From positions 3,480-67,479 of the forward strand of contig JBAUZT010000005.1 of the NCBI GenBank assembly GCA_049585415.1: a stretch of 64,000 nucleotides of DNA, given 5' to 3'. Positions 13,480-50,468 of this stretch are shown one piece after another (positions within the stretch are counted from its first letter, which is position 1; the number at the start of each line of letters is the position of its first letter). This DNA is from Thermoplasmata archaeon. Lineage in GTDB: Archaea; Thermoplasmatota; Thermoplasmata; Lutacidiplasmatales; UBA184. Made by a program: the position numbers and the translations under genes. The notes under the pieces are model-generated. The model searched no databases, was not told the origin of the DNA, and saw nothing but the letters and a program-made list of their open reading frames with translations.

Positions 13480-13488
13480 CCGGGCCGC

Positions 13489-18131: not shown

Positions 18132-18149
18132 TACCTTTCGGAAGATCCG

Positions 18150-21491: not shown

Positions 21492-21539
21492 GGAGGCCGA
21501 TATCACCGGGAGGACCGTATTTAAGGATGGGCGGCCGGA

Positions 21540-23373: not shown

Positions 23374-24048
23374 ATGCTGAAGGAGTGCGCCCAACACGGG
23401 TACTTCCGCGCGGAGACGTGCCCGGTCTGCGGGCAGCCCGGTCGGTTCCTCATGAACGACCGCGAGCTCGACCACCTCGGCCGGATCCTCACGGGGATCC
23501 TCCGCCACTTCCCGGACCGCTACCAGCTCACGGTGGACGAGCGGGGGTGGATCTCCCTGCCGCAGATTGTCCGCGCGATCTCCCAGAAGCATCCCCCCTA
23601 TCACTGGCTCCGCACCCAGCACCTGGTCGCGATCGCCGAGACCGACCCGAAGGGACGGTACGAGGTCCGGGACGACCGGATCCGCGCGACGTACGCCCAC
23701 ACGATCGAGGTCGAGCTCGACCTGCCGACCGAGAACATCCCGGACCAGCTGTTCTATCCGGTCACCGAGGAGGAGTCCGCGATCGTCCTCGAGGTCGGTC
23801 TGAAGCCGTCGGACCGGAAGAAGGTCCACCTTTCGAAGACCGCGCGCGACGCGCACTCCGCGGGCTCGGTACGGACTCCCCAGCCGGTGATCCTCGAGGT
23901 CGATGCCCACCGCGCCCGCGCGGACGGGATCGTGATCATGCAAGCCGGAAAGACCGTCTTCCTCGTCGACCGGGTCCCCCCCGAGTACCTCCACCGCATC
24001 GAGTTCACTCCCCCGGCGGACGAAGCGCCCGCCGCGGGCAACGACTAG
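23374..24048 (+). CDS. kptA: RNA 2'-phosphotransferase KptA/Tpt1-like, with N-terminal zinc ribbon
   Basis: LGRILTGILRHFPDRYQLTVDERGWISLPQIV and …KKVHLSKT… motifs resemble KptA. The TAG stop is formed at the IS630 insertion junction. Confidence 0.65.
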   Translation: MLKECAQHGYFRAETCPVCGQPGRFLMNDRELDHLGRILTGILRHFPDRYQLTVDERGWISLPQIVRAISQKHPPYHWLRTQHLVAIAETDPKGRYEVRDDRIRATYAHTIEVELDLPTENIPDQLFYPVTEEESAIVLEVGLKPSDRKKVHLSKTARDAHSAGSVRTPQPVILEVDAHRARADGIVIMQAGKTVFLVDRVPPEYLHRIEFTPPADEAPAAGND

Positions 24049-25103
24049 TGCCGCACCCACAAACATCGTTTGACCTTGTGGACGGGCGCTGAGTGTTTGG
24101 CGTTGAGCTCGCGCATCGCCATCTGAATGGCGGCTCCCAAGGGCCGCCACTCTCGGAAGTCCGACCCCGTCAGGGCCATCTGACGGATCGAGCGGAAGTG
24201 GGTCTCGATCGGGTTCATGTGCGAGGAGTTCGTCGGGATCGGCACGAGGGAGATCTTCAGCCGTCGGGCCTCTCTCAGCGCCTCCGGGGTCGTGTGCGTG
24301 GAGAGGTTGTCCTGGATCAGGAAGATCCGTTCGTCCGGGGGATACCACCGCCGCACGTAGCGCAGGAACCTCACCCAGTTCGTTCCGCTCTTCCTCGGCG
24401 AGAGATACCCTCGCAGGACCTTGTGGAAGTAGTCGTACATCCCCATCAGGTGGCGGACTCCCATCGTCCGCTTGTAGGTCGCACGGACTCGGTCGGGGTG
24501 CCCCGACCGAGCCCACGTGCGACCTCCGTACGGCTTGAGGGAGATCGGACCCATCTCGTCGACCGCCACCACGATCGGAGGGTTGTGCTCGCGGTTCATG
24601 AGGGCCCTCAGCCGCTTCACTTTCTCTCGGAACTTGGGGTCCTTGCTCTGCTTCCAGGTCTTCACGGCCTGGAAGGAGACCGCTTCCTCGTGGAGGATCT
24701 CTCGCAACCGCTCCTTCGAGATTGACTCGACGATCCCGAACATCACCGCCGAGCTCTGCAGCCGCTCGAGCGTCCACGGGCCGAAGGCGTACCCGTGGTC
24801 CTTCGGAGGGGAGAGCGCGAGGTCCACCAGGGCTTGGCGAATGGGCCGAGTGAAGGTGGGTGGGCGGCCGCCCGCCCGATTCGGGTAGAGGGCGTCCCGT
24901 CCTATTCGATCGAAGTCCTTGATGACCCGACGGACCCACGCCTCGCTCCAGAAGACCATGGCCGCGATCTTCGGCGGAGAGAACCCTTGGTTGGAGTGCA
25001 GCACCACCTGAGCCCGTCGCATGACGGTCGGGTCCCGGGTGCGGTTCATCAGGCGGTTGATCGACTCTCCTTCCTCCGCCGGGAGGTCACGGACGCGCAG
25101 CAT
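24045..25103 (-). CDS. IS630/Tc1-mariner family DDE transposase
   Basis: N-terminal HTH, catalytic motifs VVAVDEMG, IFLIQDNLSTH and SHMNPIE (DD…E with NPIE). The ORF runs to the very end of the element; its stop TAG is completed by the target-derived TA plus the flanking base. Confidence 0.9.
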   Translation of the reverse strand: MLRVRDLPAEEGESINRLMNRTRDPTVMRRAQVVLHSNQGFSPPKIAAMVFWSEAWVRRVIKDFDRIGRDALYPNRAGGRPPTFTRPIRQALVDLALSPPKDHGYAFGPWTLERLQSSAVMFGIVESISKERLREILHEEAVSFQAVKTWKQSKDPKFREKVKRLRALMNREHNPPIVVAVDEMGPISLKPYGGRTWARSGHPDRVRATYKRTMGVRHLMGMYDYFHKVLRGYLSPRKSGTNWVRFLRYVRRWYPPDERIFLIQDNLSTHTTPEALREARRLKISLVPIPTNSSHMNPIETHFRSIRQMALTGSDFREWRPLGAAIQMAMRELNAKHSAPVHKVKRCLWVRH

Positions 25104-25187
25104 CGAGGAAGGGGTGAACCCCTTCCCCGGGAAAGTACTTTCGTCGGACGCTCAGGAATTCCTACAGTCGGTTTCCGGTCGCGGCAC
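24048..25187 (-). mobile_element. IS630-family insertion sequence (about 1140 bp) with imperfect terminal inverted repeats, flanked by a duplicated TA from a CTAG target
   Basis: Left end TA|GTGCCGCACCCACAAAC…; right end …GTTTCCGGTCGCGGCAC|TA. The terminal 9 nt are perfectly inverted (GTGCCGC…/…GCGGCAC), then degenerate to about 19 nt. Flanking bases reconstruct C-TA-G. Confidence 0.85.
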
Positions 25188-25816
25188 TAGACTCCGCCGT
25201 CCTCCGCGACGTCCGACTCGTACTCGGTCGAGACGTAGATCTCGATCGTCACGTGGCTGGACGCCGGCAGCGGGTTCGAGAACACGAAGTAGTACATGTC
25301 GGTGTATTCCGCGGCGAAGACGATCGGCCCCGCCCAGTTCGGGGTGTTGTTCCACTGGGTACCCGGGTTCCCCGTGCCGTTGGTGAACCACGACCACTCA
25401 CTCGAGTTGTAGATCGCGACCGCGATGTTCATCCCGGGAGGGGTCACCGCGCTGTAGTTGCCCTGGATGTAGTCCCCGCCCGTGATGTTCCCCGAGAGGA
25501 CCGTGTAGTTCCCGGGGCCGAGGACGTACGTCCCGGAGGTCGTGAGCGGGTCCGTTACCACCGGAGCCCCCGAGAGCGCGGCGGAGATGAGGGCGTAGGC
25601 GAGCAGGACGACGACCGCGATCACGATCAACGAACGGAACGTCGAAGTGAGCGCGATCCGGCGGCGCACGCGCTTCGGCGCCCGCTCGATCTCGCCGGCC
25701 CGTACGGGTCGGTCGGCGCCGCAGATCGGGCAGACCTTGGCCTCCGGTGGGAAGGCGCCGCCGCAGAAGCTGCACGAGCCCCACGTCACGGAGGAAGGCG
25801 GCTCGAGGTTCGGCAC
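25187..25816 (-). CDS. Hypothetical membrane-anchored protein: cytoplasmic zinc ribbon, one TM helix, extracellular domain rich in N-glycosylation sequons
   Basis: CSFCGG…CPICG ribbon, TM helix LIVIAVVVLLAYALISAAL, then NYT/NIT/NYS/NSS/NGT/NNT sequons. Confidence 0.55.
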   Translation of the reverse strand: MPNLEPPSSVTWGSCSFCGGAFPPEAKVCPICGADRPVRAGEIERAPKRVRRRIALTSTFRSLIVIAVVVLLAYALISAALSGAPVVTDPLTTSGTYVLGPGNYTVLSGNITGGDYIQGNYSAVTPPGMNIAVAIYNSSEWSWFTNGTGNPGTQWNNTPNWAGPIVFAAEYTDMYYFVFSNPLPASSHVTIEIYVSTEYESDVAEDGGV

Positions 25817-25892
25817 GTCGAGGCGACGACCCGGAGGGTATCTTTTCTGCTTTCGTACGAACCCGGGAGGCCCCGAGGGTCCCGCGGGCGGG

Positions 25893-27371
25893 CTAGCCCT
25901 TTCTCTTGCCCGTTCCGAGGTTGAGGAGCACGTTCTTACGTCGCGTGAACGGCTCGAGCGCGCGCTGTCCCTGTTCGAAACCGAGCCCGCTGCCCTTCAC
26001 GCCGGCGAACGGGGACTGGGGGAACGTCATCGGCGCCTCGTTCACGACGACCATGCCCGCCTCGATCCGGCGGGCGAGGGTGTGGGCGGTCGAAAGGTCG
26101 CGCGTCCAGAGCGCCGCCAACAGTCCGTAGGAAGTGTCGTTCGCCATCCGTACCGCCTCGTCGACGTCGGAGAACGACGCGACGGAGAGGACGGGGCCGA
26201 AGACCTCCTCTCGGGCCGCCTTGGCCGAGTCCGGCAGGTCCGCGAGGATGGTCGGGCGCACGAAGTTTCCTGCCCCGAGACGGCCCTCGGTCACCTTCGA
26301 GCCGCCGGTGACGACCGTGCCGCCGTTCGCGCGCGCGTCGTCCACGAACCCGAGAACATGCTCGGCGTGCTCCTTCGAGACGAGCGGCCCCATCTCCACG
26401 CCGTCCTCGAGCCCCGGACCGAGCCGGAGCGCTTCCGCGATCCCGCGAACCTTCTCGAGGAGCGGGACGCGGAGGCTCTCGTGCACGATCAGGCGGGACG
26501 CTGCCCAGCACATCTGACCGGCGTTCCCGAAGATCCCGTAGCCGATCGATTTCGCGGCGCGATCGACATCCGCATCGCCCAGGACGACCACCGGACCCTT
26601 TCCGCCCAGCTCCATCGTGGCCGGAACAAGGCGGCGCGCGGCGAGCTCCGCGATCCGAACCCCGACCTCGCCGCTCCCGGTGAACGTGACGGAACGGCAT
26701 CGGGGGTCGTCGACGAGCGCTTCGCCGACTTCCCCGCCGCTCCCGCTTAGGACGTTGAGGATCCCGTCGGGGATCCCGGCCTCCTTCGCCAGCCGGGCGA
26801 AAGCGAGGGCGGTGAGCGGCGTCAAGCTGGCCGGTTTCAGGACCGCCGCATTGCCGGCAGCGAGCGCCGGCGCGAGCGAACGGACCGAAAGGACGAGCGG
26901 GTAGTTCCACGGAGCGATATGGACCGTGACCCCGAGCGGCTCGCGAAGGGTGTAATCGAGCCGCGGACCCGGGACGGGGATCGTTTCGCCCTCGACCTTG
27001 TCCGCGAGGCCCGCGAAGTACTCGAGGGTGCGGACCACGTAGCCGAGGTCCCCACGCGACTCCCGGAGCGGCTTACCGACGTTCAATGTCTCGAGGCGCG
27101 CGAGCGATTCCGCCTGCGCTTCCACGAGGCCGGCCAGCTTCTGCAGCGCGCGGCCCCGCCGCGCGCCGTCGTCGCCCGCCCAACCGGACTCCCGGAACGC
27201 TCGGTCGGCCGCTTCCATCGCCGCGTGGGCGTCGTCGCGGGAGGCGACCGCGGTGATCGCCACGGGCGAGTTGGTCGCGGGGTCGAGGATCTCGCGGCGG
27301 GTCCCCTTCGTGCCCGGGGTCTCGCGTCCGCCGATGAACAGTTCGAACGAGCACGGGGTCGCCGCCGACAT
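25893..27371 (-). CDS. NAD(P)+-dependent aldehyde dehydrogenase
   Basis: Catalytic Glu ELGGKGP and Cys FGNAGQMCWAASR; 492 aa. Confidence 0.9.
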   Translation of the reverse strand: MSAATPCSFELFIGGRETPGTKGTRREILDPATNSPVAITAVASRDDAHAAMEAADRAFRESGWAGDDGARRGRALQKLAGLVEAQAESLARLETLNVGKPLRESRGDLGYVVRTLEYFAGLADKVEGETIPVPGPRLDYTLREPLGVTVHIAPWNYPLVLSVRSLAPALAAGNAAVLKPASLTPLTALAFARLAKEAGIPDGILNVLSGSGGEVGEALVDDPRCRSVTFTGSGEVGVRIAELAARRLVPATMELGGKGPVVVLGDADVDRAAKSIGYGIFGNAGQMCWAASRLIVHESLRVPLLEKVRGIAEALRLGPGLEDGVEMGPLVSKEHAEHVLGFVDDARANGGTVVTGGSKVTEGRLGAGNFVRPTILADLPDSAKAAREEVFGPVLSVASFSDVDEAVRMANDTSYGLLAALWTRDLSTAHTLARRIEAGMVVVNEAPMTFPQSPFAGVKGSGLGFEQGQRALEPFTRRKNVLLNLGTGKRKG

Positions 27372-34324: not shown

Positions 34325-36190
34325 GTGGCTCGCACGGTCGACCATCTGGTCGGACTCGCTCTGGTCGGGAAGGCCCGAGTGGGGCCGCTCGCGTTCCCCA
34401 CTCCCGGATTGATCTCGAGTCCGGTTCCGGGGATCGAAACGACCGAGCTGGGCTTGCGCAGCGAGCCGTCGCCCGCCGGAACGCGCCACTTGACGCTCTT
34501 CGATACCCGGGCGAGCCTCGAGCTACACTTCCCGATCCTCGCCCCCGAGGTGATGGGGGCCCCCGGCGCGGCCGTTCCCGTCGGGGACGGCGCCGCCGTC
34601 GTGCACCCGCCGCTCTCGCCCGAGACCGCCGCGACCCCGCCCTCGATGCGGCCCGAGCTCCTCGTGCTCGGGAATGCCCGAGCGCTGTGGGCGGACGGCC
34701 GGGCGTTCATCACGTCGTTGCGCGACGTCCGCGAGGTCTACGGAGGCAACGCGGTGCTCTGGGCACCGCGCGTCGCGCTCCCCCATCGGGTGCCGCTTCT
34801 CGTCTACCTGGGCGTGGACCTCGTCGATACCACCGAGGGGTTGTTCGCCGCGACGCGAGGCGAGTATCTCGACCCGGTGTTCGGTCCGTTCGACCGAGCG
34901 GCGGCCATCGCCGAGACGCTGTGCGCCTGCCCCGCGTGCGCCTCCGGTGGGACCGGAGACCTTGCGGTCCATACCGTCCACGCGTATCGACGGGCGCTCA
35001 TCGAGACACGCGCCGCGGCGCGGGCGGACCGCCTTCGGGAACTCGTGGAGGCGCGCCTGCCCGCGGAGCCCGCCCTCGCGGAGATGCTCCGTTACGCGGA
35101 CCACGACCTCGGTTCGCTCCTCGACGAACGGACCCCGGTGACCCGGACCGGCTCGCACGACTACGTGATCCTCGAATCGCAACGGCGGCCCGAGATGGCG
35201 AGGTTCCGGCGGCGCCTCCTCGAGCGGTATCGCCCTCCCGCGTCGAAGACCGTGCTGTTGCTCGTCCCGTGCTCCCGGACCAAACCGTACCGCCACTCCC
35301 GCTCCCACCGTCGGTTCGCCTCCGCCTGGGAGGGGATGCGCGCGACGGAGCGACTGCACGTCGTATCGGTGAGCTCTCCGATCGGCCTGGTCCCGCGAGA
35401 GCTCGAGGACCTCCCGCCGGCGCGACACTACGACATTCCGGTAACGGGAGACTGGGTGGGCCCGGAGCGCGAGGCCGTCCTCGCCGGGCTTCGACACCTC
35501 CTCGCGAACGGTCAGTACCGGGCCGTGGTGGTCCATCTCGATCCGGAGGAGTACTCGTTCCTCCAACCTGCGCTACCGACCACGATCCCGGTCGCGTGGA
35601 CGCTCGCGGACGACCGAACGACCTCGCCCGAGGCGATCCGCGAGCTTCGGGGAGCGCTCGCTACGGCGCTGGACGGCGAGGCCGCGGTCCCCGGCGGACC
35701 CCTCGCGGTCGTTCGAGAAGAGCTCCGGGAGGTCGCGAGTGTACAATTCGGCCGGGCGGCGGCGGATCGCCTGTTCGTTCCTCCCGTGCGGCTGGCCGGA
35801 CGTCCGTGGTTCCAGCGACTGACGGATGGCCGGGCCGACCTCGCGACGTTGCGCGAAGAGCGAGGGCTCTTCCATCTCACGGTCGCGGGCGCCCGACGCC
35901 TCGTGCCCCATCCCCCGTTCGCGGTCGAGGTCGACCCCGCGCTCTCCCTCGAGGGGGACCTCTTCACGCCGGGGGTCCGGTCTGCGAACCGGGAGATCCG
36001 GGTGGGCGACAGCGTAGTGCTGCTCCGGAACGGCGCGCTCGCCGGGGTCGGGGAGGCCGCGTTGCCGGGGCGACTGATGACCGAGTTGAGCCACGGGCTC
36101 GCTGTGCGGGTCCGTCACCGCGAGCACGCGACGACCGACACCCCCATGACGGGGAAGGGACCTGACCCCGACCCGGGGCCGGTAGTCTAG
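34325..36190 (+). CDS. arcS: Archaeosine synthase ArcS (TGT-like N-terminal domain, PC-X3-KPY motif, C-terminal PUA domain)
   Basis: Diagnostic motif VPCSRTKPYRHSRSH (PC-X3-KPY-X2-S-X2-H as described for ArcS). TGT-like LLVYLGVDLVD; C-terminal PUA-like IRVGDSVVLL. The last 15 nt overlap tRNA-Val. Confidence 0.75.
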   Translation: MARTVDHLVGLALVGKARVGPLAFPTPGLISSPVPGIETTELGLRSEPSPAGTRHLTLFDTRASLELHFPILAPEVMGAPGAAVPVGDGAAVVHPPLSPETAATPPSMRPELLVLGNARALWADGRAFITSLRDVREVYGGNAVLWAPRVALPHRVPLLVYLGVDLVDTTEGLFAATRGEYLDPVFGPFDRAAAIAETLCACPACASGGTGDLAVHTVHAYRRALIETRAAARADRLRELVEARLPAEPALAEMLRYADHDLGSLLDERTPVTRTGSHDYVILESQRRPEMARFRRRLLERYRPPASKTVLLLVPCSRTKPYRHSRSHRRFASAWEGMRATERLHVVSVSSPIGLVPRELEDLPPARHYDIPVTGDWVGPEREAVLAGLRHLLANGQYRAVVVHLDPEEYSFLQPALPTTIPVAWTLADDRTTSPEAIRELRGALATALDGEAAVPGGPLAVVREELREVASVQFGRAAADRLFVPPVRLAGRPWFQRLTDGRADLATLREERGLFHLTVAGARRLVPHPPFAVEVDPALSLEGDLFTPGVRSANREIRVGDSVVLLRNGALAGVGEAALPGRLMTELSHGLAVRVRHREHATTDTPMTGKGPDPDPGPVV

Positions 36191-36248
36191 CGGTGATGAC
36201 GTCGCGCTTACAACGCGGAGATCGACGGTTCGAATCCGTCCCGGCCCA
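36176..36248 (+). tRNA. tRNA-Val (anticodon TAC)
   Basis: Manually folded. Acceptor GGGCCGG/CCGGCCC, D-arm GTC-TAGCGGTGAT-GAC, anticodon loop CTTACAA, T-arm GACGG-TTCGAAT-CCGTC, discriminator A. 73 nt. Confidence 0.85.
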
Positions 36249-36409
36249 CGGCCCGAACGTCGATGGCCAAGGGTTCGGTGCCCCTCGGCTCCGAGCCTCC
36301 GAACCTTAGTCACACGATCGTCGCGGTCGCATCGCTCTCACCAAAAATGACGGCGAGTTGAGGGGTCTTCAGAACGGATCGGGTCGCTATGTCTCCTTTC
36401 AGAATCCAG

Positions 36410-36417
36410 TATAAGTA
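36410..36417 (+). promoter_or_regulatory. TATA box (TATAAGTA) about 25 nt upstream of the surface-protein ATG; leaderless promoter
   Basis: AT-rich motif in an otherwise GC-rich intergenic region, at the spacing expected for an archaeal TATA box relative to a start codon that coincides with the transcription start. Confidence 0.5.
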
Positions 36418-36441
36418 TCGTCACAGCTATCGAGGAAACGG

Positions 36442-39400
36442 GTGGGATCGCCGGATTTGATCGCCCCCGAAGGGACGCGGGCCGGTGCTGCGAGCGGACC
36501 CGTTCCGCATCGCACGCGTCGACGTCCGCGCTCGAATCGGCGAACCGTCGCGGTGCTGGCGGTCATAGCGTTGGTGTTCGGTGGGATGGTTCTCAACTTC
36601 GGCGTCACAGCCCCGGCGCTGACCCGGCCACAGGGTCCTGAGAACACCCCGCTCCTGGGATGCGGTTCGGCTTCGATCGGTTGTGACAATGCCGATTCAG
36701 CGACCGTTGCCTCCGCGATAACCCCCGACCTCACGGTGACCTCCAGCAACACGACCAACTTTGCCGGGTCTCCCACGCCTTTCCAGGCAGCCCTTCCGTT
36801 CGGGTTCACGGCTACGGGTTACACATGGTGGTGGGGAGATGGAAGTGTCAGCACCACCTCGACGGGAACCACATCGCACACGTACTCCTCGGCCGGAGTA
36901 TACCTGGTGTATGCCCAGGCGACCGACTCCTCTGGCCTACTGCACGACAACCTTCGGGCGATCCTCCGTCACGTCGAAGTCTCTTCGGCGACCGGGGACG
37001 CTCTCGGAAACTACCCGGAAGTCGCCGGAGCGATCGTTGCGAACAGCTCTACGAACGTGAATGCGACAGCGACCATTCCAGCCGGAGGCGCGGTAACCGT
37101 AGAGAACTGGATCGCCTCGGGGCCGTCCAACCCGGACTGGTCGCTGGGAACGCCGGACTACTTTCTCTCGGCCAACGCCGGCCCATATGCTACCCCCTCT
37201 TCCTCCATCCTGAACTCTAGCGGAATCGATGGAGTTACGGTCTCCTTCTCTCCGACCACTCCCAACGGGAGCTACGCCCTGTCGTTCTCTGCTCCCAGTC
37301 TCGGCAAGGTGAACGGGACCAGCGCAACGGTTTGGGCGAACTTCACGTTCACGGTCTTCGTCTCGTCCGGGGCGGTGACCCCCCTCCCATCCATCCCCAC
37401 TTCCCCTCACCCGGGTTCGTTGGCGGTGTATTACCAGTCGACTTTCAGCACGTGGGATTCGCAACTGGTCTACGACTCCATCGATGGGGGAATACTACAG
37501 AACGTTGTACAGAGCCTGCTCTTCCGAAACGTTTCTCACGACGGCTCAAGCCCGCAAGACCTCGTCCCGGATCTCGCGACGTGCGTACCCGGCTCCGTTC
37601 AGTGCTTCGACCTCTATGGGAACTACTTGGAAGACGCTCAGGGAGACTATACGTTCGTACTGAACCCCAACGCGACCTTCTACAATCCGACGACCGGAGG
37701 TCACGAGACGGTGTACCCCAACGACGTAGCGTTCTCGATCACTCGGGACTGCCTCCTTTCGAATTTTCTTACGGGAACCCAGGTCTTCAGCGCAGGGTAC
37801 GACCTGTGCCAGTCTCTACTTCCGGGACCTTCCTCCTTGTCGAATCCATCAAACCAGAGCTGGGACGGCGGGGTTCACTATCCGTACAACAACACACCGG
37901 CGAACATCCTCTCCGCAATCGAGGTGAACAGTAGCTCCTTTTGTCCGCCTTCCAGCCCTATGCGAGACGGCATTCACGGTAACGGATGCGTCACCCTATT
38001 GACCTCTGGCTCCGGGTCCGAATGGCCGAACTTCCTCGATTTCGTTTCGACGGCATGGGGCTCGTCGGTCGTGAACTGTGACTTGGTCTCGGCGGCAGGA
38101 TACGGCTTGCCGGGATGGGAAAACGGAATGACTTGCCTCGGCGCTCCGCCGGGGTCTGCCGGTAATTTGAACGGTGTACCCCCCAACAACGCGTGGGATG
38201 CCTCGATCACGTATCTCGCGAACACGGCGTACGACTCTCCTCTTCAGTGGGCTCTCAACGGCAGCGGCCCGTACTATGTTTCCCAGGTGATTCAAGGAGG
38301 GTCTGGCCCGACAACGGTGACTCTCGAGGCGAACCCGTACTGGGGGGGCACAACCTGCGAAGGAGGTCGACTGGCCGGTTGCTTGCCACCCGGAGACTTG
38401 GGTGGCCCTCCCCCGACGTTCATTCCCAAGGTCATCATCTATGCGAATGTCTCATCGGCGGTCGGCCTCGCCGCAGTTCGCGCAGGAAGCGCCGACCTAG
38501 TGGACCTCAACGCCTCGGAGATCCCGGCCCTCGACAACGCGCTGGAGAGCGGCCAAATCCAGGCGGCCGTCGTCCCGGGGATTGGCGTCGAGCCGCTGGG
38601 GATGAACCTCAACTACTCCACCACCGAAGCCGCAATGATCCTGGGCGCTCCGTCCACGTTGCCGTCGGACCTTCTCCAGGACATCAACCTCCGTCAATTC
38701 CTGATCAACGCGTACCCTTGGCAGACAGCGGAGACCGACTCGTGCATCGTCGGCGGAATCCAGCTCTGCCTGCAGTACGCTGGAGCGTTGCCGGCCTACA
38801 TGACCGGTTTCATCCCCACGAACCTTAGTTGGCCGATGCCCAATCCAAGCTCCAACCCGAACGTCGTCGGTGGAGCCGCATGGTGGTGGGCGCTCGCGGA
38901 CTCCGACGGCATCGTGAACGCGGCCTGTTCGGCCTCCCTGCCGTGCACTTTTCCGGTGCCTTCCGAGCAAGGAAATCCGACCTTGAGCGGTCCCCTAGCG
39001 GCGTGGGCGGCGAACGTGAAGACCCTCTCGGGCGGTGCCATCGTCCCAGAGCCCGTTCTGGTGCCGTTCTATCCTACCATCTACCTGAACGATACCGCCC
39101 CGCCCGGTCAAAGTGGTTTCGCGACCCAGTCGGATGGTTGGGCCCCCGACTTCTTCGATCCGTCCAATTACCTCAATCCGTTCTACGAGCCGGACCTCTC
39201 TTGGGGCTACTCGAACTCCTTCGCACCGGGACTGCTGCAGGCGAAGTACGAGAGTGCTTGTGCGGGGCCCGCAGCGTACCCCCAGGTCACCGAGAGCTGC
39301 CAAGGCACCGCCTACCGGGAGCTGCTCAGCCTCGCGAACGCCTCCGCGACCTGTGCCCCGCCCAGCTGCACTCTGAGCAGCCGCGAGCTTCTCTACCACG

Positions 39401-40311
39401 AAGCCGACCAACTCACCTACGGTCTCAGCCTCTATCTGCCGGTCGAACAGACCGCGGACGTGATTGGCGTCGCCCCGTGGATCGAGCTCTCGTCCCTCGC
39501 GTACGATCCGCTTTCGGGCAGCTTCGGGCTCATCGGCCAACCCTTCTTCGACATTCGCTATGCTTCGGTCGTACCGCCGGTCTATCCGCTCGAGGTAGGC
39601 GCCCTCGGAGGGTTTACTCCGGTGGGCCAGGTCCTTTCCAGCCAAGGAAGTCAGATCTCGGCAAGCGTCGCAACTCCTACCATTGAGACCGGTGAGAGCC
39701 TCCTCGTTCTCGTGAGCGTGGCCGGGGGCACGGGTGTCTATTTCTATGCTTGGCAGGGACTCCCCACGGGTTGTACCTCGGTGAACACCGGGGCCCTCGT
39801 CTGTCGACCGAACGGCACCGGCTCTTTCACCGTGTCGGTAACGGTCACGGATTCGGCCGGCGATCGGGGGACGAGCCCCCCCGAGAACGTGGAGGTGGTC
39901 GAAGGTCCCACGATATCGCGCTTCACCGTCTCCCCGGCCGCCATTCAACTCGGTGAGTCCGCCGAATTCTCGCTCGCGGCTACCGGAGGCATCGGAGGAC
40001 TGCTCCTTTCGTACTCCGGATTGCCTCTCGGATGCGCTAGCGCGAATCGGTCGTCCTTGAGCTGCACACCAATGGCAGTGGGCACATTCACCGTCGTCGC
40101 GTTCGCGCGTGACTCCCTGGGCGTGGTGGCGATCGACAACACATCGCTAACGGTATCCTCTCCTGCTTCCGGCGCTATACCATCAAGCTCGAACAACCTC
40201 CTCTATCTCGCGATCGGGGTGAGCGTCGGCGGCATCGGAGGCGCCATCGGCTCGATCACGGTGGCATGGTGGCAATGGAAGCGGAAACCTCCTCCGAAGC
40301 CAGGGCCGTGA
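36442..40311 (+). CDS. Large cell-surface glycoprotein (S-layer-like) with N-terminal signal/anchor, PKD domain, He_PIG-type Ig-like repeats and C-terminal TM anchor
   Basis: PKD signature WWWGDGS…HTYSSAGVYLVYAQATDSSG; more than 30 N-x-S/T sequons; two C-terminal repeats (…GLPTGCTS…GSFTVSVTVTDSAGDRG / …GLPLGCAS…GTFTVVAFARDSLG); terminal TM helix LLYLAIGVSVGGIGGAIGSITVAWW followed by KRKPPPKPGP. GC visibly lower than flanks. Confidence 0.8.
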   Translation: MGSPDLIAPEGTRAGAASGPVPHRTRRRPRSNRRTVAVLAVIALVFGGMVLNFGVTAPALTRPQGPENTPLLGCGSASIGCDNADSATVASAITPDLTVTSSNTTNFAGSPTPFQAALPFGFTATGYTWWWGDGSVSTTSTGTTSHTYSSAGVYLVYAQATDSSGLLHDNLRAILRHVEVSSATGDALGNYPEVAGAIVANSSTNVNATATIPAGGAVTVENWIASGPSNPDWSLGTPDYFLSANAGPYATPSSSILNSSGIDGVTVSFSPTTPNGSYALSFSAPSLGKVNGTSATVWANFTFTVFVSSGAVTPLPSIPTSPHPGSLAVYYQSTFSTWDSQLVYDSIDGGILQNVVQSLLFRNVSHDGSSPQDLVPDLATCVPGSVQCFDLYGNYLEDAQGDYTFVLNPNATFYNPTTGGHETVYPNDVAFSITRDCLLSNFLTGTQVFSAGYDLCQSLLPGPSSLSNPSNQSWDGGVHYPYNNTPANILSAIEVNSSSFCPPSSPMRDGIHGNGCVTLLTSGSGSEWPNFLDFVSTAWGSSVVNCDLVSAAGYGLPGWENGMTCLGAPPGSAGNLNGVPPNNAWDASITYLANTAYDSPLQWALNGSGPYYVSQVIQGGSGPTTVTLEANPYWGGTTCEGGRLAGCLPPGDLGGPPPTFIPKVIIYANVSSAVGLAAVRAGSADLVDLNASEIPALDNALESGQIQAAVVPGIGVEPLGMNLNYSTTEAAMILGAPSTLPSDLLQDINLRQFLINAYPWQTAETDSCIVGGIQLCLQYAGALPAYMTGFIPTNLSWPMPNPSSNPNVVGGAAWWWALADSDGIVNAACSASLPCTFPVPSEQGNPTLSGPLAAWAANVKTLSGGAIVPEPVLVPFYPTIYLNDTAPPGQSGFATQSDGWAPDFFDPSNYLNPFYEPDLSWGYSNSFAPGLLQAKYESACAGPAAYPQVTESCQGTAYRELLSLANASATCAPPSCTLSSRELLYHEADQLTYGLSLYLPVEQTADVIGVAPWIELSSLAYDPLSGSFGLIGQPFFDIRYASVVPPVYPLEVGALGGFTPVGQVLSSQGSQISASVATPTIETGESLLVLVSVAGGTGVYFYAWQGLPTGCTSVNTGALVCRPNGTGSFTVSVTVTDSAGDRGTSPPENVEVVEGPTISRFTVSPAAIQLGESAEFSLAATGGIGGLLLSYSGLPLGCASANRSSLSCTPMAVGTFTVVAFARDSLGVVAIDNTSLTVSSPASGAIPSSSNNLLYLAIGVSVGGIGGAIGSITVAWWQWKRKPPPKPGP

Positions 40312-40403
40312 TAGCTCGGCGCGGAATGTTTCCCCGTGCTGCGGTTGGAACCCGCTCTGGCATCGGTCGCTCCGGTCCCACCATCTCGACACTCGATCCG
40401 CCG

Positions 40404-40428
40404 GGCGGTTCGAACCCGTCCCGGCCCA
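40404..40428 (+). repeat. Direct repeat of the 3' end of tRNA-Val (T-arm plus acceptor 3' strand; 23/25 identical to 36224–36248); putative att remnant
   Basis: GGCGGTTCGAACCCGTCCCGGCCCA versus GACGGTTCGAATCCGTCCCGGCCCA. No matching 5' acceptor strand upstream, so it is a fragment and not a second tRNA. Confidence 0.7.
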
Positions 40429-40504
40429 TCCCTCTCCCCCGCGCCCGGACCCACCCCTCGGTGACCGGGAGTTTAATCGAGAGAACACCCCTGACCCCCC
40501 CCGC

Positions 40505-40681
40505 ATGTCCGCTGCATCCGAAGCGAGAGACGAGGCAAGGAAGGCGTTCGAGGAGGCGAGGGCCGGGATCCACAGAGGGTTCCGCGAGGCGGTGACCGCC
40601 GCACGGAAGGCCCGCCAAGCGGCGCTCGCGGCCGCGCGAGCGGCACACCGCAAAGCGCTCGCGGCCGCGCGAAAACTCTAG
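40505..40681 (+). CDS. Possible tiny ORF (58 aa) encoding an Ala/Arg-rich helical peptide with an internal repeat
   Basis: MSAASEARDEARKAFEEARAGIHRGFREAVTAARKARQAALAAARAAHRKALAAARKL. The DNA contains an 18-nt direct repeat GCGCTCGCGGCCGCGCGA. Could be non-coding. Confidence 0.25.
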   Translation: MSAASEARDEARKAFEEARAGIHRGFREAVTAARKARQAALAAARAAHRKALAAARKL

Positions 40682-40739
40682 CGCCGTTCCCCGGGATCGT
40701 TCCAGAGCCTCCGGCTCCCTCAGTCGATCGGATTCGGGA

Positions 40740-40994
40740 ATGACCGGTATCCCTCCCGGGATGGTGGACGAGGTGATTGCGGTGCTCCGAGGCTCCTCGG
40801 GACCCGTACGGAGACGGCCGCTCCTCGAGGAGCTCGAGCGGCGCGGCCATCGGATCTCCCTCGCGGGCCTCAACCGCACGCTCGAGCAGTGTCGGGCGGC
40901 CGGACTGACGATGGAGGGACCCGACGGGGTGCGCCTCAACCCGACCCCAGGGGTGCGTTCCTCGGGAAATACCGGTCATCTATCATACCTATAG
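40740..40994 (+). CDS. Possible small winged-helix-like protein (84 aa)
   Basis: MTGIPPGMVDEVIAVLRGSSGPVRRRPLLEELERRGHRISLAGLNRTLEQCRAAGLTMEG… has plausible wHTH spacing; weak evidence. Confidence 0.35.
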   Translation: MTGIPPGMVDEVIAVLRGSSGPVRRRPLLEELERRGHRISLAGLNRTLEQCRAAGLTMEGPDGVRLNPTPGVRSSGNTGHLSYL

Positions 40995-41022
40995 AAGTTT
41001 GTATAGTCTAAATTGAAATTCT

Positions 41023-41029
41023 ATATATG
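41023..41029 (+). promoter_or_regulatory. TATA box (TATATAT) in a sharply AT-rich 60-nt patch, 24 nt upstream of the phoU-like ATG
   Basis: 40981–41052 is about 70% AT within a roughly 70% GC genome. Spacing fits a leaderless transcript. Confidence 0.5.
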
Positions 41030-41052: not shown

Positions 41053-42120
41053 ATGAGCGAAGAGAACCTCCCGGAGGAACCGGCGTCGCGCCGGGCGCCC
41101 TCCCGACCCCGCCGGGCGCGGGAACCGACCCCGTCCGATACCCCCTTGCGAGCCACGAGCGACACCCGTCCCCCCCGTCGCCTACTTCGGCGCGGGGACG
41201 ATAACGCCTCTCGGGCTGCACCACCGTTCTCGGGCGTGCTCCTGGGTCGCCCTTCGGTAGCGACCGTGACCGTCGGCCCGCGAGAATCGTCCGAACATCT
41301 GTTCCGTCGGCTCCTCGGGGCGTACCTCGGCGGCGCCCGAGAGTTCATCGTGATCGAGCGACCCGAGGTGACGATCGGCACGCGCGAGGTCGTTCGCACG
41401 TTCTGCCGCCGCACGCGACAGCCCGAGGTGGTCTTCGAGGAGGGCGGGGTGATCCGGCTCCGCGACCTCGCGTACGAGACCCCGGTCCCGCTGCCCGAGC
41501 GCCTAACGCGGATGGGGCGGATCGTGCTCGCCTTTCACCGCGAGGCGGTCGAGAGCTGGTCGGAGCTGCCCCTCGGCGAGGACGACTACTGGGAGCGACG
41601 GGACGACGAGATCGACCGCGAGGCCTGGTACGTCCAGCGGCTCGCGGCGCTGCGTCTCCAGCTCGACCCGACCGGAGTGACGCTGCTCGGTCCCTGGACG
41701 ATCGCCCGCAGCCTCGAGCGGATCGCCGACCACGCCACGGTCATCGGCGAGACGGGCCGCCGGATCGTCGAACTGCCCCGGGGCGGCGCGGCGCTCACGT
41801 CCCTCCAGCAGTTCCACCACCAGGCGATGGACCATCTCGAGGGCGTGCTCAACGCGCGGGACGACGCGGCAGCGAACGACCTCCTCGACATGGGCGAGGC
41901 GCTGCTCGTCTCGGGCCGCGCGCTCTCCGACCGGCTCCTCCCCGCGGTCGGTGGGGGCACGATGCCTCCCGCGACCGCCGCCGCCGTGACACGGATCCTC
42001 GAGTCCATCGGCCGGACGGTCGCCTACGCGCAGGATATCGCGCAGGTCGTGCTCGACCGCGCGATCCCGGTGACGTTCTCGGAGTCTCCCGCGGACGCGG
42101 ACGAGCCGATCGCCTCGTGA
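41053..42120 (+). CDS. PhoU-domain protein (phosphate uptake regulator-like, two PhoU repeats)
   Basis: PhoU-like helical repeats including LERIADHATVIGE and ILESIGRTVAYAQDIAQ. The N-terminal roughly 60 aa are low-complexity and Arg/Pro-rich. Confidence 0.6.
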   Translation: MSEENLPEEPASRRAPSRPRRAREPTPSDTPLRATSDTRPPRRLLRRGDDNASRAAPPFSGVLLGRPSVATVTVGPRESSEHLFRRLLGAYLGGAREFIVIERPEVTIGTREVVRTFCRRTRQPEVVFEEGGVIRLRDLAYETPVPLPERLTRMGRIVLAFHREAVESWSELPLGEDDYWERRDDEIDREAWYVQRLAALRLQLDPTGVTLLGPWTIARSLERIADHATVIGETGRRIVELPRGGAALTSLQQFHHQAMDHLEGVLNARDDAAANDLLDMGEALLVSGRALSDRLLPAVGGGTMPPATAAAVTRILESIGRTVAYAQDIAQVVLDRAIPVTFSESPADADEPIAS

Positions 42121-42199: not shown

Positions 42200-42727
42200 A
42201 TGGCCGAACCCACTCCGAGCGCGCGCGTCGTGCTCTTCCGCCACGGTCCCGCGGAGCGCCGGGACCCGGCCCGCTGGCCGGACGACGCGCTGCGACCCTT
42301 GAGCCGTAAGGGCGTCCAACAGACCCGGCGGGCCGCTCGGGGACTCGCCCGTCAGGTCGAGCACGTGACCCGGGTCGCGTCGAGCCCCGCGGTGCGCGCC
42401 CGCCGGTCGGCCGAGATCCTCGGGGAGACCCTCGAGCCCCCGGTGCGGCCGCAGCTCTGGGCCGAGCTCGACCTCGGGACGACCGCGGCGGCGATCCTGC
42501 CGCGGCTGCGGCACGAGACCGGCGCCGGCCGCACGGTCGTGCTCGTCGGGCATGACCCGACCCTTTCCGAATTCCTCGGCCTCGCCCTCGCGGCCGAGAG
42601 CGTCGCGGTCGCGCGGCTCACGAAGGCGGGCGCCGCGTGCGTCGAGTTCCCGCGGTCCGTTCGACCGGGGTCGGGACGACTGGTCTGGCTGCTCACGCGG
42701 AGGCAGCTGGCCGTCGGGAGCGACTGA
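42200..42727 (+). CDS. sixA: Histidine-phosphatase-superfamily protein (SixA-like phosphohistidine phosphatase)
   Basis: VVLFRHGPAE (RHG catalytic motif) and VLVGHDP second His motif; 175 aa. Confidence 0.75.
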   Translation: MAEPTPSARVVLFRHGPAERRDPARWPDDALRPLSRKGVQQTRRAARGLARQVEHVTRVASSPAVRARRSAEILGETLEPPVRPQLWAELDLGTTAAAILPRLRHETGAGRTVVLVGHDPTLSEFLGLALAAESVAVARLTKAGAACVEFPRSVRPGSGRLVWLLTRRQLAVGSD

Positions 42728-43448
42728 CCGGCGGTCGAGCCGACAGGAGCGCGCGGCGCGGGGGAGCCGCGTAGAGCGGCGCGACCAGGCCGCGAACGTC
42801 CTCGTGGACTTTGTCCGGCATCCGGTTCGCGTCGACGCGGTGGAATCCGTACTCGGCGCCGACCCAGGCGAACTCCTTCGAGAGGCGGTCCTGGTAGGCG
42901 AAGAAGCTCTCGAAGAGGTCGCGGGAGAGCGAGAGGTCCATCCCCGACTCCCAGTAGTCGAGCGACCCGTACTTCGCGATCGCGCGGTGGAGCAGGATCT
43001 CGGGGCGTGCCTCGAGGAAGACCACCAGGTCCGGCTTCAAGGCGAACCCGTACAGCTGGCGGGCCCAGTCCCGCGACGCCCCCCGGACGACCGCGCGCGC
43101 CATGAGCGTGTAGATGTACCGGTCGGCGAGCACCGTGCTGCCGGCGGAGAGGGCGGGAACGATCTTGTTCTCGAGCTGGTCGGCGAAATCCACGGCGTAG
43201 AGCAGCGCCATCGTGGTCGTGCCGAGGGTGTGGCCCTGCTTCGCCTGGTCGATCTCTCCGGCGACCAGGTCGGAGCGACGGAGGCCGGTGTCGACGACCG
43301 CGTGGCCCTCCACCTCGAGCCACTCACGGAGGAGCGCCACCTCGGTCGTCCGGCCGGACCCGTCCGCGCCCTCGATGACGATCAGCTTCCCCGAGAGCGA
43401 ATGCTCGGGGAGCCCGGGGAGACGGGTGCCGTACGTCCTATCCGTCAT
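42693..43448 (-). CDS. Thymidylate-kinase-family protein A (P-loop variant GSGRTT)
   Basis: IVIEGADGSGRTT (Arg in place of the usual P-loop Lys), DRY motif LADRYIYT, LID-region arginines. Overlaps the upstream paralog by 11 nt. Confidence 0.8.
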   Translation of the reverse strand: MTDRTYGTRLPGLPEHSLSGKLIVIEGADGSGRTTEVALLREWLEVEGHAVVDTGLRRSDLVAGEIDQAKQGHTLGTTTMALLYAVDFADQLENKIVPALSAGSTVLADRYIYTLMARAVVRGASRDWARQLYGFALKPDLVVFLEARPEILLHRAIAKYGSLDYWESGMDLSLSRDLFESFFAYQDRLSKEFAWVGAEYGFHRVDANRMPDKVHEDVRGLVAPLYAAPPRRALLSARPPVSRSRRPAASA

Positions 43449-44139
43449 GCATCAGCCTCTCGGCCATGGGGAAGTTCTGGAGGATCGGCCGGACGAAGCC
43501 GCGCAGTTGTGCCTGGATCGACTCGACCGACCGGCTCGAGTCGATGACCGTGAACTCGTCCGTTCGGGCCATCCGCTCGTACTCCTGCTTCAGGCGCGTC
43601 TGGAACCGCTCGTAGCTGTCGTGCAGGTCGTCCGAGAGCCCGAGGTCCATCCCGGCCTCGTAGTAGTTGATCTTGAGACGCGAGGCGATCTTCCGCTGGA
43701 GCGTCACGGAGACCGGGACGCGGAAGTAGAAGACGCAGTCCGGTCGCGGGGCGAACGAGTAGATGTTCCGGACCCAGGCGGGGTCGCACCCCCGGGCCGC
43801 GTCCCGAACGAAGGCGGTGTAGGCGTAGCGGTCGCAGACGACCACGTACCCCGCGCGGAGCGGTGGGAGGATCTTCCGCTCGAACCGGTCGGCGAAGTCG
43901 GTAGCGTGGAGGAGCGAGAACGTCGTCGGGGTGAGGAGGTTCTTCTTCTTGCCGCGGCGGATCGTCGCCGACGTGAGCTCCGACGAGTTCCATTCGGTGA
44001 AAAAGACCCGATACCCTTGGGCCTGGAGCCACTTGCCGAGGAGCGCGGCCTGGGTCGATTTTCCGCTGCCGTCGAGCCCCTCGAAGACGAAGAGGCGTCC
44101 CGGGAACCCGTGGGTCGGGCTCGGCAGTTCAGGCATCAC
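43438..44139 (-). CDS. Thymidylate-kinase-family protein B (canonical P-loop GSGKST)
   Basis: FVFEGLDGSGKSTQA, DRY motif VCDRYAYT. Overlaps the ppx 3' end by 11 nt and the downstream paralog by 11 nt. Confidence 0.8.
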   Translation of the reverse strand: MMPELPSPTHGFPGRLFVFEGLDGSGKSTQAALLGKWLQAQGYRVFFTEWNSSELTSATIRRGKKKNLLTPTTFSLLHATDFADRFERKILPPLRAGYVVVCDRYAYTAFVRDAARGCDPAWVRNIYSFAPRPDCVFYFRVPVSVTLQRKIASRLKINYYEAGMDLGLSDDLHDSYERFQTRLKQEYERMARTDEFTVIDSSRSVESIQAQLRGFVRPILQNFPMAERLMHDG

Positions 44140-49404: not shown

Positions 49405-50409
49405 TCAGAGATAGCTCGCGTGCGCGTGGATGACCGCCCGCTCGGCGGTCGCCCACGCCTCGGGGATCTGGTTCCAGCCGTTCCGCTGGTCGCCGACGCA
49501 GTAGAGTCCGGGGATCGGGGCGCCGTCCGTCGCGCGGAGCGCGCGACAATCCTCGTCCGTCACGACGTAGCCGTCCGCGTCGAACCGGCAGCCGAGCGCG
49601 GTGGAGAATTCGTGGTGCATGTCGTACCAGCCGAGGGCGCTGAACCCGCGGTCGTAGCTGCGGTGACTACCGTCCGCGAACTTCACCCCGAATCGCTGCT
49701 CGCGGATCTCGTCGAACCCCACGACCTCGAGGTCGGTGTGCCCGATCCCGTGCTCCTGGAGCTCCTTCGTGAGGGTCGCGCGCTCCTCCTCGGGGGCGCC
49801 CGAGAGCAACGGATGCCCGAGCGTGAGCATCTCGACCGACGTCGGTCGGAAGTGGAGGACGTCGAGCGCGGTCCGCGCCGCGAACGGGTCGTGGCCGAGG
49901 ACTGCGACCGATTTCCCGGTGAGCTCGTGACCGTCGCACAGGATGCAGAAATCGACGAGCGCCTGGTTCGCCCACGGGAAGATCGTGTCGATCTTGCCCC
50001 CGACCTCGGGGATCCGGTCGACGACGCCTTGCGCGAGGACGAGCGCTCGACCCCGGGCGACGTGCGTCTGCTTCAGCCAGTCGAACGTGACGGAGTAACC
50101 GGTCTCGGTGCGCTCGACCGCGACCGCGCGCGCCGGGGTGAAGTAGCCGACCGCCTCCGAGCTCCGCACCGCCGCGACCTGCGCGTCGAGGAGCTTGTGC
50201 CCCGAGATCCCCGCCGGAAAGCCGGGGATGTTGTCCATCTTCGGCGCGTAGTACGACCGGGAGTACTTCGGCCCGCGATCGATGATCGCCGCGGAGTATC
50301 CGAGGAGGGCCGCCTTGTATCCGGCCTGGAGCCCGGCGTGTCCTCCACCGACGACGACGAAATCGTACGACGCTCGCAGGCGCGGTAGCCCCGGCACTTC
50401 CGAGCCCAC
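49405..50409 (-). CDS. Thioredoxin-reductase-like FAD/NAD(P)-dependent disulfide oxidoreductase
   Basis: FAD motif FVVVGGGHAGLQAG, redox CxxC CILCDGH, second dinucleotide motif VAVLGHDPFA. Confidence 0.8.
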   Translation of the reverse strand: MGSEVPGLPRLRASYDFVVVGGGHAGLQAGYKAALLGYSAAIIDRGPKYSRSYYAPKMDNIPGFPAGISGHKLLDAQVAAVRSSEAVGYFTPARAVAVERTETGYSVTFDWLKQTHVARGRALVLAQGVVDRIPEVGGKIDTIFPWANQALVDFCILCDGHELTGKSVAVLGHDPFAARTALDVLHFRPTSVEMLTLGHPLLSGAPEEERATLTKELQEHGIGHTDLEVVGFDEIREQRFGVKFADGSHRSYDRGFSALGWYDMHHEFSTALGCRFDADGYVVTDEDCRALRATDGAPIPGLYCVGDQRNGWNQIPEAWATAERAVIHAHASYL

Positions 50410-50468
50410 TCGGCGGGGGAATTTCAGCCCTCCTTCGTCCGCGCGGCGCGTCGCGCATCGAAAAATCC

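Follow-up and report, generated by a model that had tools for sequence, protein, structure and literature searches.

Islands at tRNA genes that lack an integrase are commonly written off as decayed proviruses. Whether that explanation suffices is the question raised by a 64,000-nt stretch of DNA from a Thermoplasmata archaeon (Lutacidiplasmatales, UBA184; assembly GCA_049585415.1, contig JBAUZT010000005.1, positions 3,480 to 67,479; hereafter, the window). In this window, an intact tRNA-Val gene and a partial direct copy of its 3' end bracket a 4.18-kb unit that carries a single gene, encoding a very large predicted surface glycoprotein, and no integrase. How did such a unit arrive behind a tRNA gene, and what moved it? 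Our analysis favors the reading that the unit (36249-40428) is an acquired, nonautonomous cassette that was site-specifically recombined into the 3' end of tRNA-Val by a recombinase acting in trans, to which we assign a probability of about 0.68.

Direct copies of the tRNA-Val 3' end border a low-GC unit

The intact tRNA-Val(TAC) gene was called at 36176-36249 by ARAGORN and at 36176-36248 by the Rfam tRNA model (70.7 bits). Its last 25 nt (36224-36248, GACGGTTCGAATCCGTCCCGGCCCA) recur as a direct copy at 40404-40428 (GGCGGTTCGAACCCGTCCCGGCCCA), with two mismatches (23/25 identical). No other copy of the repeat at three or fewer mismatches was detected in the 64 kb, where zero are expected from 100 shuffles, and tRNA-Leu, the window's other tRNA, had no repeats. 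A 13-nt core, CCGTCCCGGCCCA, is present only twice in the window, at 36236 and 40416; it covers the 3' strand of the T stem, the 3' strand of the acceptor stem, and the discriminator base. The sole plausible gene between the repeats is an open reading frame (ORF) at 36442-40311 (+) encoding 1,289 aa, with 193 bp of noncoding DNA to its left and 92 bp to its right, which leaves no room for an integrase in the unit (gene calls were based on a heuristic of G+C content at third codon positions [GC3]).

The unit also differs in composition from its surroundings. Windowed GC content is 0.57 to 0.65 across 36250-40500, the single strong low-GC stretch of the window, compared to ∼0.70 in the flanks. 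GC3 of the 1,289-aa gene is 0.740, against 0.886 ± 0.025 in 33 other genes of the window (z = −5.8). A preliminary description of this locus had reported the tRNA and its 23/25-nt copy, the lone gene between them, and the GC dip, each of which was recovered here by independent programs or counts. It had also ascribed part of the dip to amino acid composition; this cannot be the explanation, because the GC3 shift is synonymous.

Related loci contain empty sites

We scanned species-representative genomes (GTDB) with ArcS, the product of the archaeosine synthase-like gene directly upstream of tRNA-Val, which is kept in all relatives. The scan returned 67 loci (designated by L numbers) at 51 to 81% amino acid identity, nearly all from uncultured Thermoplasmata metagenome-assembled genomes (MAGs). 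Synteny was determined with tBLASTn and ARAGORN. tRNA-Val lies ∼45 to 70 nt downstream of ArcS in nearly all 67 loci, and the order UbiA-ArcS-tRNA-Val(tac)-[gap]-PhoU-TMK-TMK-Ppx (TMK, thymidylate kinase) is kept in about 60 Thermoplasmata loci. The gap itself varies widely. Eight loci (L003, L005, L009, L010, L011, L017, L034, and L037) have empty sites, with only 230 to 520 nt between tRNA-Val and the PhoU-type gene. In the nonempty loci the distance is 1 to 9 kb or more and the content is nearly all different, 137 of the ∼210 gap ORFs being singletons in protein clustering.

Comparison with the empty sites shows where the unit was inserted. In the best comparator, L003, homology blocks that are ∼4.5 kb apart in the window are separated by 57 nt. 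Positions 40404-40446 of the window align at 91% with L011 11888-11931, which comprises the tRNA end and the 19 nt beyond it, and 40404-40437 align with the tRNA end and flank of L010. The sequence past the distal copy (TCCCTCTCCCC...) is similar to the native tRNA flank of many relatives, opening TCCCTC..CCCC as in L011, L018, and L065, whereas the bases after the window tRNA itself (CGGCCCGAAC...) match no empty site. The old flank has therefore been displaced 4.18 kb downstream. A count over ∼1 Mb of related loci gave 10 matches to the tRNA-Val 3' end (six or fewer mismatches in 25) downstream of the tRNA, nine of them direct, compared to two weak ones upstream. The integration at a tRNA 3' end proposed in the preliminary description thus gains support from the empty-site alleles and from the native flank past the distal repeat; neither a repeat scattered over many unrelated sites nor relatives with the same arrangement and composition but no empty alleles, which would have spoken against it, was observed. 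That description had left open an old element remnant or a hot spot. The hot spot holds, since the site family described below bounds many different small cassettes; the old remnant fits less well.

The distal repeat belongs to a family of sites

A conserved arm (..TCGAACCGCCS) stands directly before every good distal copy of the tRNA end. When metagenomes were scanned with a pattern that covered arm and core, 13 further true sites emerged, and an nhmmer profile was built from 19 sites. The main subclass has the consensus gCACTTTCCACRATATTCGAACCGCCS-GGCGATTCGAGW-CCGTCCCGGCCCA, often followed by TGGAATATGAAAAGTGARCGYTAT. Loci that share the site have nothing else in common upstream, only the last 36 to 55 nt being shared; the conserved parts of the units are an arm of ∼30 nt plus ∼27 nt after the core. 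Derived bases are also common to the distal copies, which read GGCGATTCGAGW in place of the GRCGGTTCGAAT of the tRNAs. The T-arm look-alike therefore belongs to the element and is not a displaced tRNA end, with the last 13 nt alone common to both. The always-identical tRNA segment is accordingly only ∼13 nt long, and the element-side site in the window (40384-40428) is longer than the 25-nt repeat.

The window site has this anatomy, in direct orientation relative to the tRNA: an element-side arm at 40384-40403 (...CACTCGATCCGCCG; ..TCGAWCCGCCS) stands directly 5' of the tRNA-like 25 nt at 40404-40428, made up of the T-arm look-alike and the core CCGYCCCGGCCCA. It matched the site profile with 41 bits (E = 1.5e-10) over model positions 12 to 56, compared to 20 bits over positions 34 to 56 only for the bare tRNA end. 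The distal arm of the main subclass (CACTTTCCACRATAT) and its post-core arm (TGGAATATGAAAAGTG) are both absent from the window site, which groups with a second subclass (L008, L048, L072, and L014).

The possibility of a chance repeat beside a native, fast-evolving surface-protein gene can be regarded as already refuted by these data. Surface proteins are often atypical in composition, and in a few distant relatives (L025, L044, L056, and L057) members of the same protein family lie close to tRNA-Val, as such a coincidence would allow. However, no matches to the repeat are expected by chance, empty sites exist, the native flank of the tRNA lies at the distal border, the site matches the att (attachment site) profile, and the GC3 shift is synonymous.

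The remaining ends of the unit were also compared. A blastn search of the left noncoding end (36249-36441) against all related loci returned only the query itself. This end starts with CGGCCCGAAC, which weakly resembles the left ends CGGCTCGAAT (L008), CGGTACGAAT (L048), and CGGTTCGAAT (L076). No pair of terminal inverted repeats of the unit emerged from the repeat search, and a gapped resemblance of the two ends seen by eye was not significant. Between the gene and the distal site, a tentative second, decayed att-like copy (GCGGTTGGAACCCGCTCTGGC..ATC; 40341-40364) begins 30 nt past the stop codon. Its identity (81% over 21 nt) is no better than that of many chance pairs, and its position alone is suggestive.

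Arm and T-arm look-alike together are palindromic, and a T stem could fold from the look-alike (85 to 86% paired as sequences). A folded attC-type or RNA hairpin was nevertheless rejected: covariation did not exceed that of shuffles (100 to 130 and ∼300 of 500 reached the observed values), minimum-free-energy folds were inconsistent, and no Rfam family matched. A pseudo-tRNA was rejected upon inspection, as an anticodon arm is missing and the bases at position 53-61 are mostly A-C and unpaired. A dif-like 11-6-11 architecture was not evident by eye. We read the site as a probable double-stranded protein-binding site rather than a folded attC-type structure.

The cargo is a predicted membrane-anchored glycoprotein

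The 1,289-aa protein comprises an N-terminal signal anchor (residues 33 to 60), a PKD domain, a divergent core resembling OppA (family 5 solute-binding proteins), two Ig-like repeats, and a C-terminal transmembrane segment (residues 1253 to 1275) with a basic tail behind it. The protein is acidic and rich in Ser, Thr, Gly, and Ala, with 24 Cys residues and 22 N-X-S/T sequons. The PKD domain at residues 97 to 171 is well supported (41.7 bits against a Pfam cutoff of 23.5; E = 1e-10), whereas the SBP_bac_5 (PF00496) match at residues 594 to 752 is weak (30.2 bits, below the cutoff of 32.4). Searched against PDB, a profile of the family matched PKD domains (E = 3e-9), an Ig-like decoration protein, and the OppA and AliD binding proteins, the latter with E values of 3e-5 to 5e-4 over ∼120 residues only. 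The family is widespread in Thermoplasmata MAGs, with a best identity of 53%, and PF00496 is present in many homologs; none at 90% identity or more was found in a set of 5.8 billion proteins. The likeness to OppA/AliD-type family 5 solute-binding proteins thus consists of profile similarity and of PF00496 in many homologs. In contrast to those proteins, the cargo is far larger, carries a C-terminal transmembrane anchor, and has no ABC transporter genes adjoining it. The cargo is probably a membrane-anchored, N-glycosylated surface protein with PKD, OppA-like binding, and Ig-like domains. The preliminary description had inferred a PKD/Ig-repeat protein, N-glycosylatable and anchored at its C terminus. 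Anchor, sequons, and PKD domain all stand, but the core is probably a divergent OppA-type solute-binding fold as well.

Also as previously noted, a TATA box (TATAAGTA, 36410-36417) precedes the gene, 24 nt before the GTG start at 36442. This spacing fits a leaderless or near-leaderless transcript; an alternative in-frame TTG start lies at 36457, with GGTGGGA before it.

The closest homologs of the cargo (50 to 53% identity; six examined: L001, L002, and L088 to L091) lie in unrelated contexts, and no tRNAs or att sites were found beside any of the six. Five of the six are on contigs of 0.58 to 0.65 GC, where their own GC content looks native. Together with the low GC3 of the gene, these homologs, native in lower-GC contigs, indicate acquisition of the cargo and point to a lower-GC relative as its likely source.

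Relatives carry arrays of different cassettes behind the same site

In relatives, the sites separate unrelated cassettes, and single contigs contain several full-length sites that all point the same way. Three sites lie within 1.6 kb in L076 (at 86, 993, and 1622), and L077 (metagenome contig Ga0187815_10004742, site on +) has four in 5 kb (at 731, 1642, 4507, and 5712); two or more are present in each of L081, L082, L083, L012, L023, and L048. Units measure 0.63 to 7.5 kb, in addition to two empty units of 44 to 65 nt. The window unit, at 4.18 kb the second largest, is a single cassette with at most the one doubtful decayed extra site (40341-40364). Two of the L077 cassettes are paralogous. 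In L076, identical sequence follows the second and third sites, for which tandem duplication or an assembly effect is possible.

Individual units recur at different places with clean borders. L073 449-1367 and L077 728-1646 match at 90.5%, with unrelated DNA on either side. Similarly, a methyltransferase unit in L083 (797-1675) matches L063 10100-10978; this unit adjoins the tRNA in L063 and L071 and is second in the array in L083. Its homology spans exactly from core to next site and breaks at the 13-nt core CCGYCCCGGCCCA.

The units carry one to three accessory genes, with ORFs on both strands. MNT and HepT toxin-antitoxin pairs were found in units of L008, L048, L072, and L081; other cargo includes a SAM methyltransferase, a glyoxalase, NUDIX, zinc-ribbon, and GNAT acetyltransferase proteins, a beta-helix protein, and an NHL propeller. 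Several unit proteins are Ser/Thr/Asn-rich and without a Pfam match, with an N-terminal signal anchor and many sequons. Several other cassettes are thus also predicted to encode secreted or surface-type proteins. In the closest relative (L012, 81% ArcS identity), a 7.5-kb unit of 61% GC lies between tRNA-Val and the att site. It encodes a 1,473-aa protein (12527-16948, −) and a 368-aa Ser/Thr-rich protein (16982-18088, −), neither with a Pfam match, and may be another surface-protein cassette at tRNA-Val.

Variable content between fixed borders could also have arisen by homologous recombination, with the tRNA, att sequences, and PhoU-side flank serving as arms, as in the "flexible genomic islands" for surface structures. 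The flanks are conserved lineage-wide, the intervening content is highly variable and rich in surface-type proteins, and repeated att sequences of 50 to 95 nt could support recombination between arrays. We nonetheless consider such replacement improbable. It leaves unexplained the tRNA 3'-end copy and specific arm that mark the far end of each unit; homology stops within the 13-nt core and not at variable points; and the surroundings of the donor-like cargo homologs are unrelated and lack a tRNA or att site.

Casposons use the same tRNA end

A second type of element occupies tRNA-Val in relatives. In L050 (a Lutacidiplasmatales MAG; tRNA-Val at 11876-11949), the downstream DNA encodes a PolB-type protein and a Cas1 C-terminal domain (Pfam, E = 1.2e-10), the casposon genes being at 16313-18625 (−) and 21324-21863 (−). 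Related PolB genes or fragments adjoin the tRNA in L035, L043, L045, L047, and L058. Motifs resembling terminal repeats, GGGGTAGTACCAATTCGCC... and GGCGCTATACTACGGAGGCCCGTAAGT..., begin 9 to 10 nt past the tRNA in about ten loci (L015, L033, L050, L052, and L059; L035, L043, L045, L047, and L051); no right-hand casposon repeats were found within the loci. The A. boonei casposase requires a T-loop motif 9 to 15 bp upstream of the cut and CC at the cut and generates a 14- to 15-bp duplication (PMC6614799), and the terminal-repeat geometry in the relatives agrees with this rule. In L073 (site on +), a casposon-type repeat in reverse complement (..CCTATTGGTACTACCCCCCC) at 430-450 abuts the left end of a cassette, so a casposon entered at the core, upstream of a cassette that was already present.

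Could the window unit then be a miniature, nonautonomous casposon, placed at the tRNA 3' end by a Cas1-type casposase? The casposons at tRNA-Val in relatives, the agreement of their terminal repeats with the A. boonei rule, and the L073 junction speak for this, but we consider it very improbable. Neither the window nor six other loci show the duplication of 14 to 15 bp (CCCA and 10 nt of flank) that this model predicts. In the window, the two copies diverge completely after CCCA (CGGCCCGAAC versus TCCCTCTCCC). The repeat ends exactly at the discriminator base here and in L008, L012, L014, L030, L063, and L072, with the next 10 nt different; the cassettes are therefore not casposon insertions. 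Cassette ends are also unlike casposon terminal repeats, and the window has no significant terminal inverted repeat. On the basis of junction geometry, the casposon model was rejected for the cassettes.

Two side observations concern these loci. L033 encodes an OLD-family nuclease (12012-13784, +; AAA_15/AAA_21 plus TOPRIM), a defense-type protein, right after the casposon-type repeat beside tRNA-Val. In L035, an ORF beside a casposon remnant (13389-14015, +) has a helix-turn-helix and a subthreshold match to an rve integrase core of the insertion sequence type.

No recombinase accompanies the cassettes

The preliminary description had seen no integrase, which agrees with the single gene between the repeats and with wider searches. 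No tyrosine or serine site-specific recombinase was detected among 57 locus ORFs scanned individually. Recombinase families were also missing from the 25 most frequent of 142 Pfam families in 139 gap ORFs, a ranking in which single matches may be hidden. A phmmer search with the SSV1, psiM2, lambda, and PhiCh1 integrases returned no match among 6,963 ORFs (window and all loci), and no fragments of a split Int(N)/Int(C) integrase were found at the window unit. IMG/VR yielded no free element carrying the tRNA-Val 3' end, arm plus core, or either of two arm patterns.

Lack of an integrase leads to the main rival, the ordinary decay of a larger element. According to this explanation, archaeal "gene capture" by a virus or plasmid with a tyrosine integrase was followed by deletion of integrase and backbone. 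Among archaeal elements that target tRNA genes, cases of integration without a surviving integrase and of integration in tandem have both been documented (PMC8371274), and bacterial tRNA-seeded islands hold degraded elements and scattered partial tRNAs (tycheposons; bioRxiv 10.1101/2020.12.28.424599). The poorly conserved arm and left end of the window unit, together with the possible decayed copy at 40341-40364, would fit an old insertion. However, at least 15 different units keep the arm and only one to three genes, with neither a shared backbone nor an integrase fragment. Clean breaks at the core in identical units that occupy different places in arrays are not what independent decay predicts, and IMG/VR holds no free element with the tRNA-Val end or arm. 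We therefore regard decay as unlikely, although clearly ahead of the other alternatives.

The cassette reading instead accounts for these features by a series of proposed steps. tRNA-Val would have been regenerated at insertion, forming attL, with the former downstream flank now behind the hybrid site attR (40384-40428), and crossover most likely within the 13-nt core CCGTCCCGGCCCA. Each unit ends in a conserved site consisting of element arm, T-arm look-alike, and core, with a post-core arm in one subclass. Newcomers would enter beside the tRNA and push older units downstream, giving arrays as in integrons or tRNA-seeded islands. The data directly establish the insertion itself, the hot spot, the affiliation of the window site with the site family, the modular cassettes of relatives, the foreign composition, and the architecture of the protein. 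Because the units carry no recombinase, the enzyme, presumably site specific in type, would be supplied in trans. The window cassette would thus be one member of a so far undescribed family of small, integrase-less cassettes of soil and peat Thermoplasmata. Units of this family may be mobile at present and may serve envelope variation.

Several points weigh against this conclusion. The closest available relative has only 81% ArcS identity, so there is no strain-level evidence of presence and absence. The integrase searches are insensitive to very divergent enzymes and covered only the ∼1.3 Mb of the loci; the proposed mechanism is inferred from anatomy alone. The window arm has diverged (∼14 nt are clearly shared) and the left end is not conserved, such that the unit may be old and no longer mobile. 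Evidence for arrays derives from MAGs and short metagenome contigs, in which repeats can be misassembled. Finally, the shared derived bases could have arisen by insertion into an existing distal copy or by gene conversion.

Flanking genes

The features of the locus are given in Table 1. By Pfam, the upstream neighbors in the window are UbiD, UbiA, and the ArcS-like gene. Downstream, the PhoU-domain gene is followed in conserved synteny by two thymidylate kinase paralogs and then a Ppx/GppA gene on the minus strand. The 320 nt at 40429-40749, between the distal site and a small conserved ORF, have no counterpart in L003 or other loci, and DNA homology restarts at 40744-40750. A possible 58-aa ORF within this stretch (40507-40683) has no Pfam match and no homolog in the related loci.

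Table 1. Features of the tRNA-Val locus in the window
Feature	Position	Strand	Basis
ArcS-like archaeosine synthase gene (DUF5591 + TGT_C2 + PUA)	34325..36190	+	Pfam
tRNA-Val(TAC), proximal attachment site (attL)	36176..36248	+	ARAGORN, Rfam, repeat search
13-nt identity core CCGTCCCGGCCCA, likely crossover segment	36236..36248	+	Constant between tRNA and nearly all distal copies
Left noncoding cassette end, with TATAAGTA	36249..36441	+	Sequence; blastn
Cargo gene, predicted 1,289-aa membrane-anchored glycoprotein	36442..40311	+	Pfam, topology, family profile
Tentative second, decayed att-like copy (GCGGTTGGAACCCGCTCTGGC..ATC)	40341..40364	+	Repeat search, 81% over 21 nt
Distal attachment site (attR)	40384..40428	+	nhmmer site profile, site alignment
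Displaced ancestral tRNA flank	40429..40446	+	Alignment with L011, L010
Possible 58-aa Ala/Arg/Lys-rich ORF, TTTAAT 28 nt upstream; status uncertain	40507..40683	+	Sequence
Small conserved 84-aa ORF, host flank	40740..40994	+	Protein clustering (common to L003, L040, L060)
Conserved AT-rich promoter-like motif (catacctatag..tgtatagtctaaattgaaattctatata)	40984..41028	+	Upstream of PhoU-domain gene; same motif in empty-site loci
PhoU-domain gene, host flank	41053..42120	+	Pfam, synteny

The thymidylate kinase paralogs (42693-43448, −, and 43438-44139, −) overlap by 11 nt and are ∼39% identical, and the pair is kept in all relatives covering the region. Elsewhere in the window, a second, mild GC dip (0.64 to 0.65) was seen at 23750-25500, with minus-strand genes at 24045-25151 and 25187-25996. 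The ORF at 50252-54988 (+; 1,578 aa) is the large subunit of carbamoyl-phosphate synthase. Its Pfam domains begin at residue ∼484, and it is probably overextended at the 5' end or overlaps another gene (50286-51686).

Comparison with known systems and significance

Among known systems, archaeal tRNA-targeting elements of the SSV and pNOB8 types (PMC8371274) likewise insert after an intact tRNA, leave a 3'-end repeat at the far border, and are foreign in composition. The window unit differs from them in having a single gene and neither an integrase nor a split Int(N)/Int(C), and the sites in relatives bound many tiny arrayed units (0.6 to 3 kb) with an arm of ∼30 nt and no backbone. Bacterial tycheposons and related tRNA-seeded islands (bioRxiv 10.1101/2020.12.28.424599) share the full proximal tRNA, partial tRNA copies between insertions, newcomers that push older units inward, and adaptive or defensive cargo. 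They carry a tyrosine recombinase and replication genes, however, whereas the cassette units carry neither and add a conserved arm to their partial tRNA copy.

Integrons, reported from Archaea too (PMC9668308), are also arrays whose small, integrase-less cassettes each terminate in a conserved site. They share with the cassettes one apparent fixed proximal insertion site, the same cassette at different positions, and a cargo of toxin-antitoxin systems and accessory enzymes. Unlike integrons, the arrays described here have no IntI-type integrase beside them: the neighbors of the window tRNA are ArcS upstream and the PhoU type downstream, and no such integrase was found in the scanned loci. The anchor is a tRNA and not attI, there is no attC-type pairing signal, and cassette genes lie on both strands with their own promoters (the TATA box of the window gene being an example).

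Family 2 casposons of A. boonei and M. mazei (PMC6614799, PMC5137440, PMC4779613) also target tRNA 3' ends, including tRNA-Val in related MAGs. They cut before CCCA, duplicate 14 to 15 bp into the flank, and have terminal inverted repeats, Cas1, and PolB, none of which was detected in the window unit. Helper-dependent elements (IMEX at dif; CIMEs, integrative mobilizable elements; PMC5704250) are similarly integrase-less and flanked by sites, can accumulate in tandem, and depend on an enzyme in trans, as proposed for the cassettes. The cassettes differ from them in targeting a tRNA instead of dif, in showing no evident 11-6-11 architecture, and in that no helper was identified.

These comparisons raise a broader and more tentative idea, which we rate somewhat below even odds: the cassettes may be part of an undescribed gene capture system. 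In such a system, tRNA-Val would be the docking site for a trans-acting recombinase. Self-expressed cassettes with T-arm-mimicking sites of 50 to 95 nt would form integron-like arrays enriched in surface and defense or toxin-antitoxin genes, with casposons competing at the same tRNA end. The site and its 13-nt core are concrete enough to mine genomes for a co-occurring recombinase and to test recombination in vitro. The use of one tRNA end by casposons and a second integration system would bear on the choice of T-arm motifs by Cas1-type and other integrases. For the organism itself, the giant surface-protein gene would be a recent foreign acquisition and not a core component of the envelope. 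If this reading is correct, uncultured archaea would diversify their surface and defense repertoire modularly, by means of minimal cassettes that share a defined recombination site.

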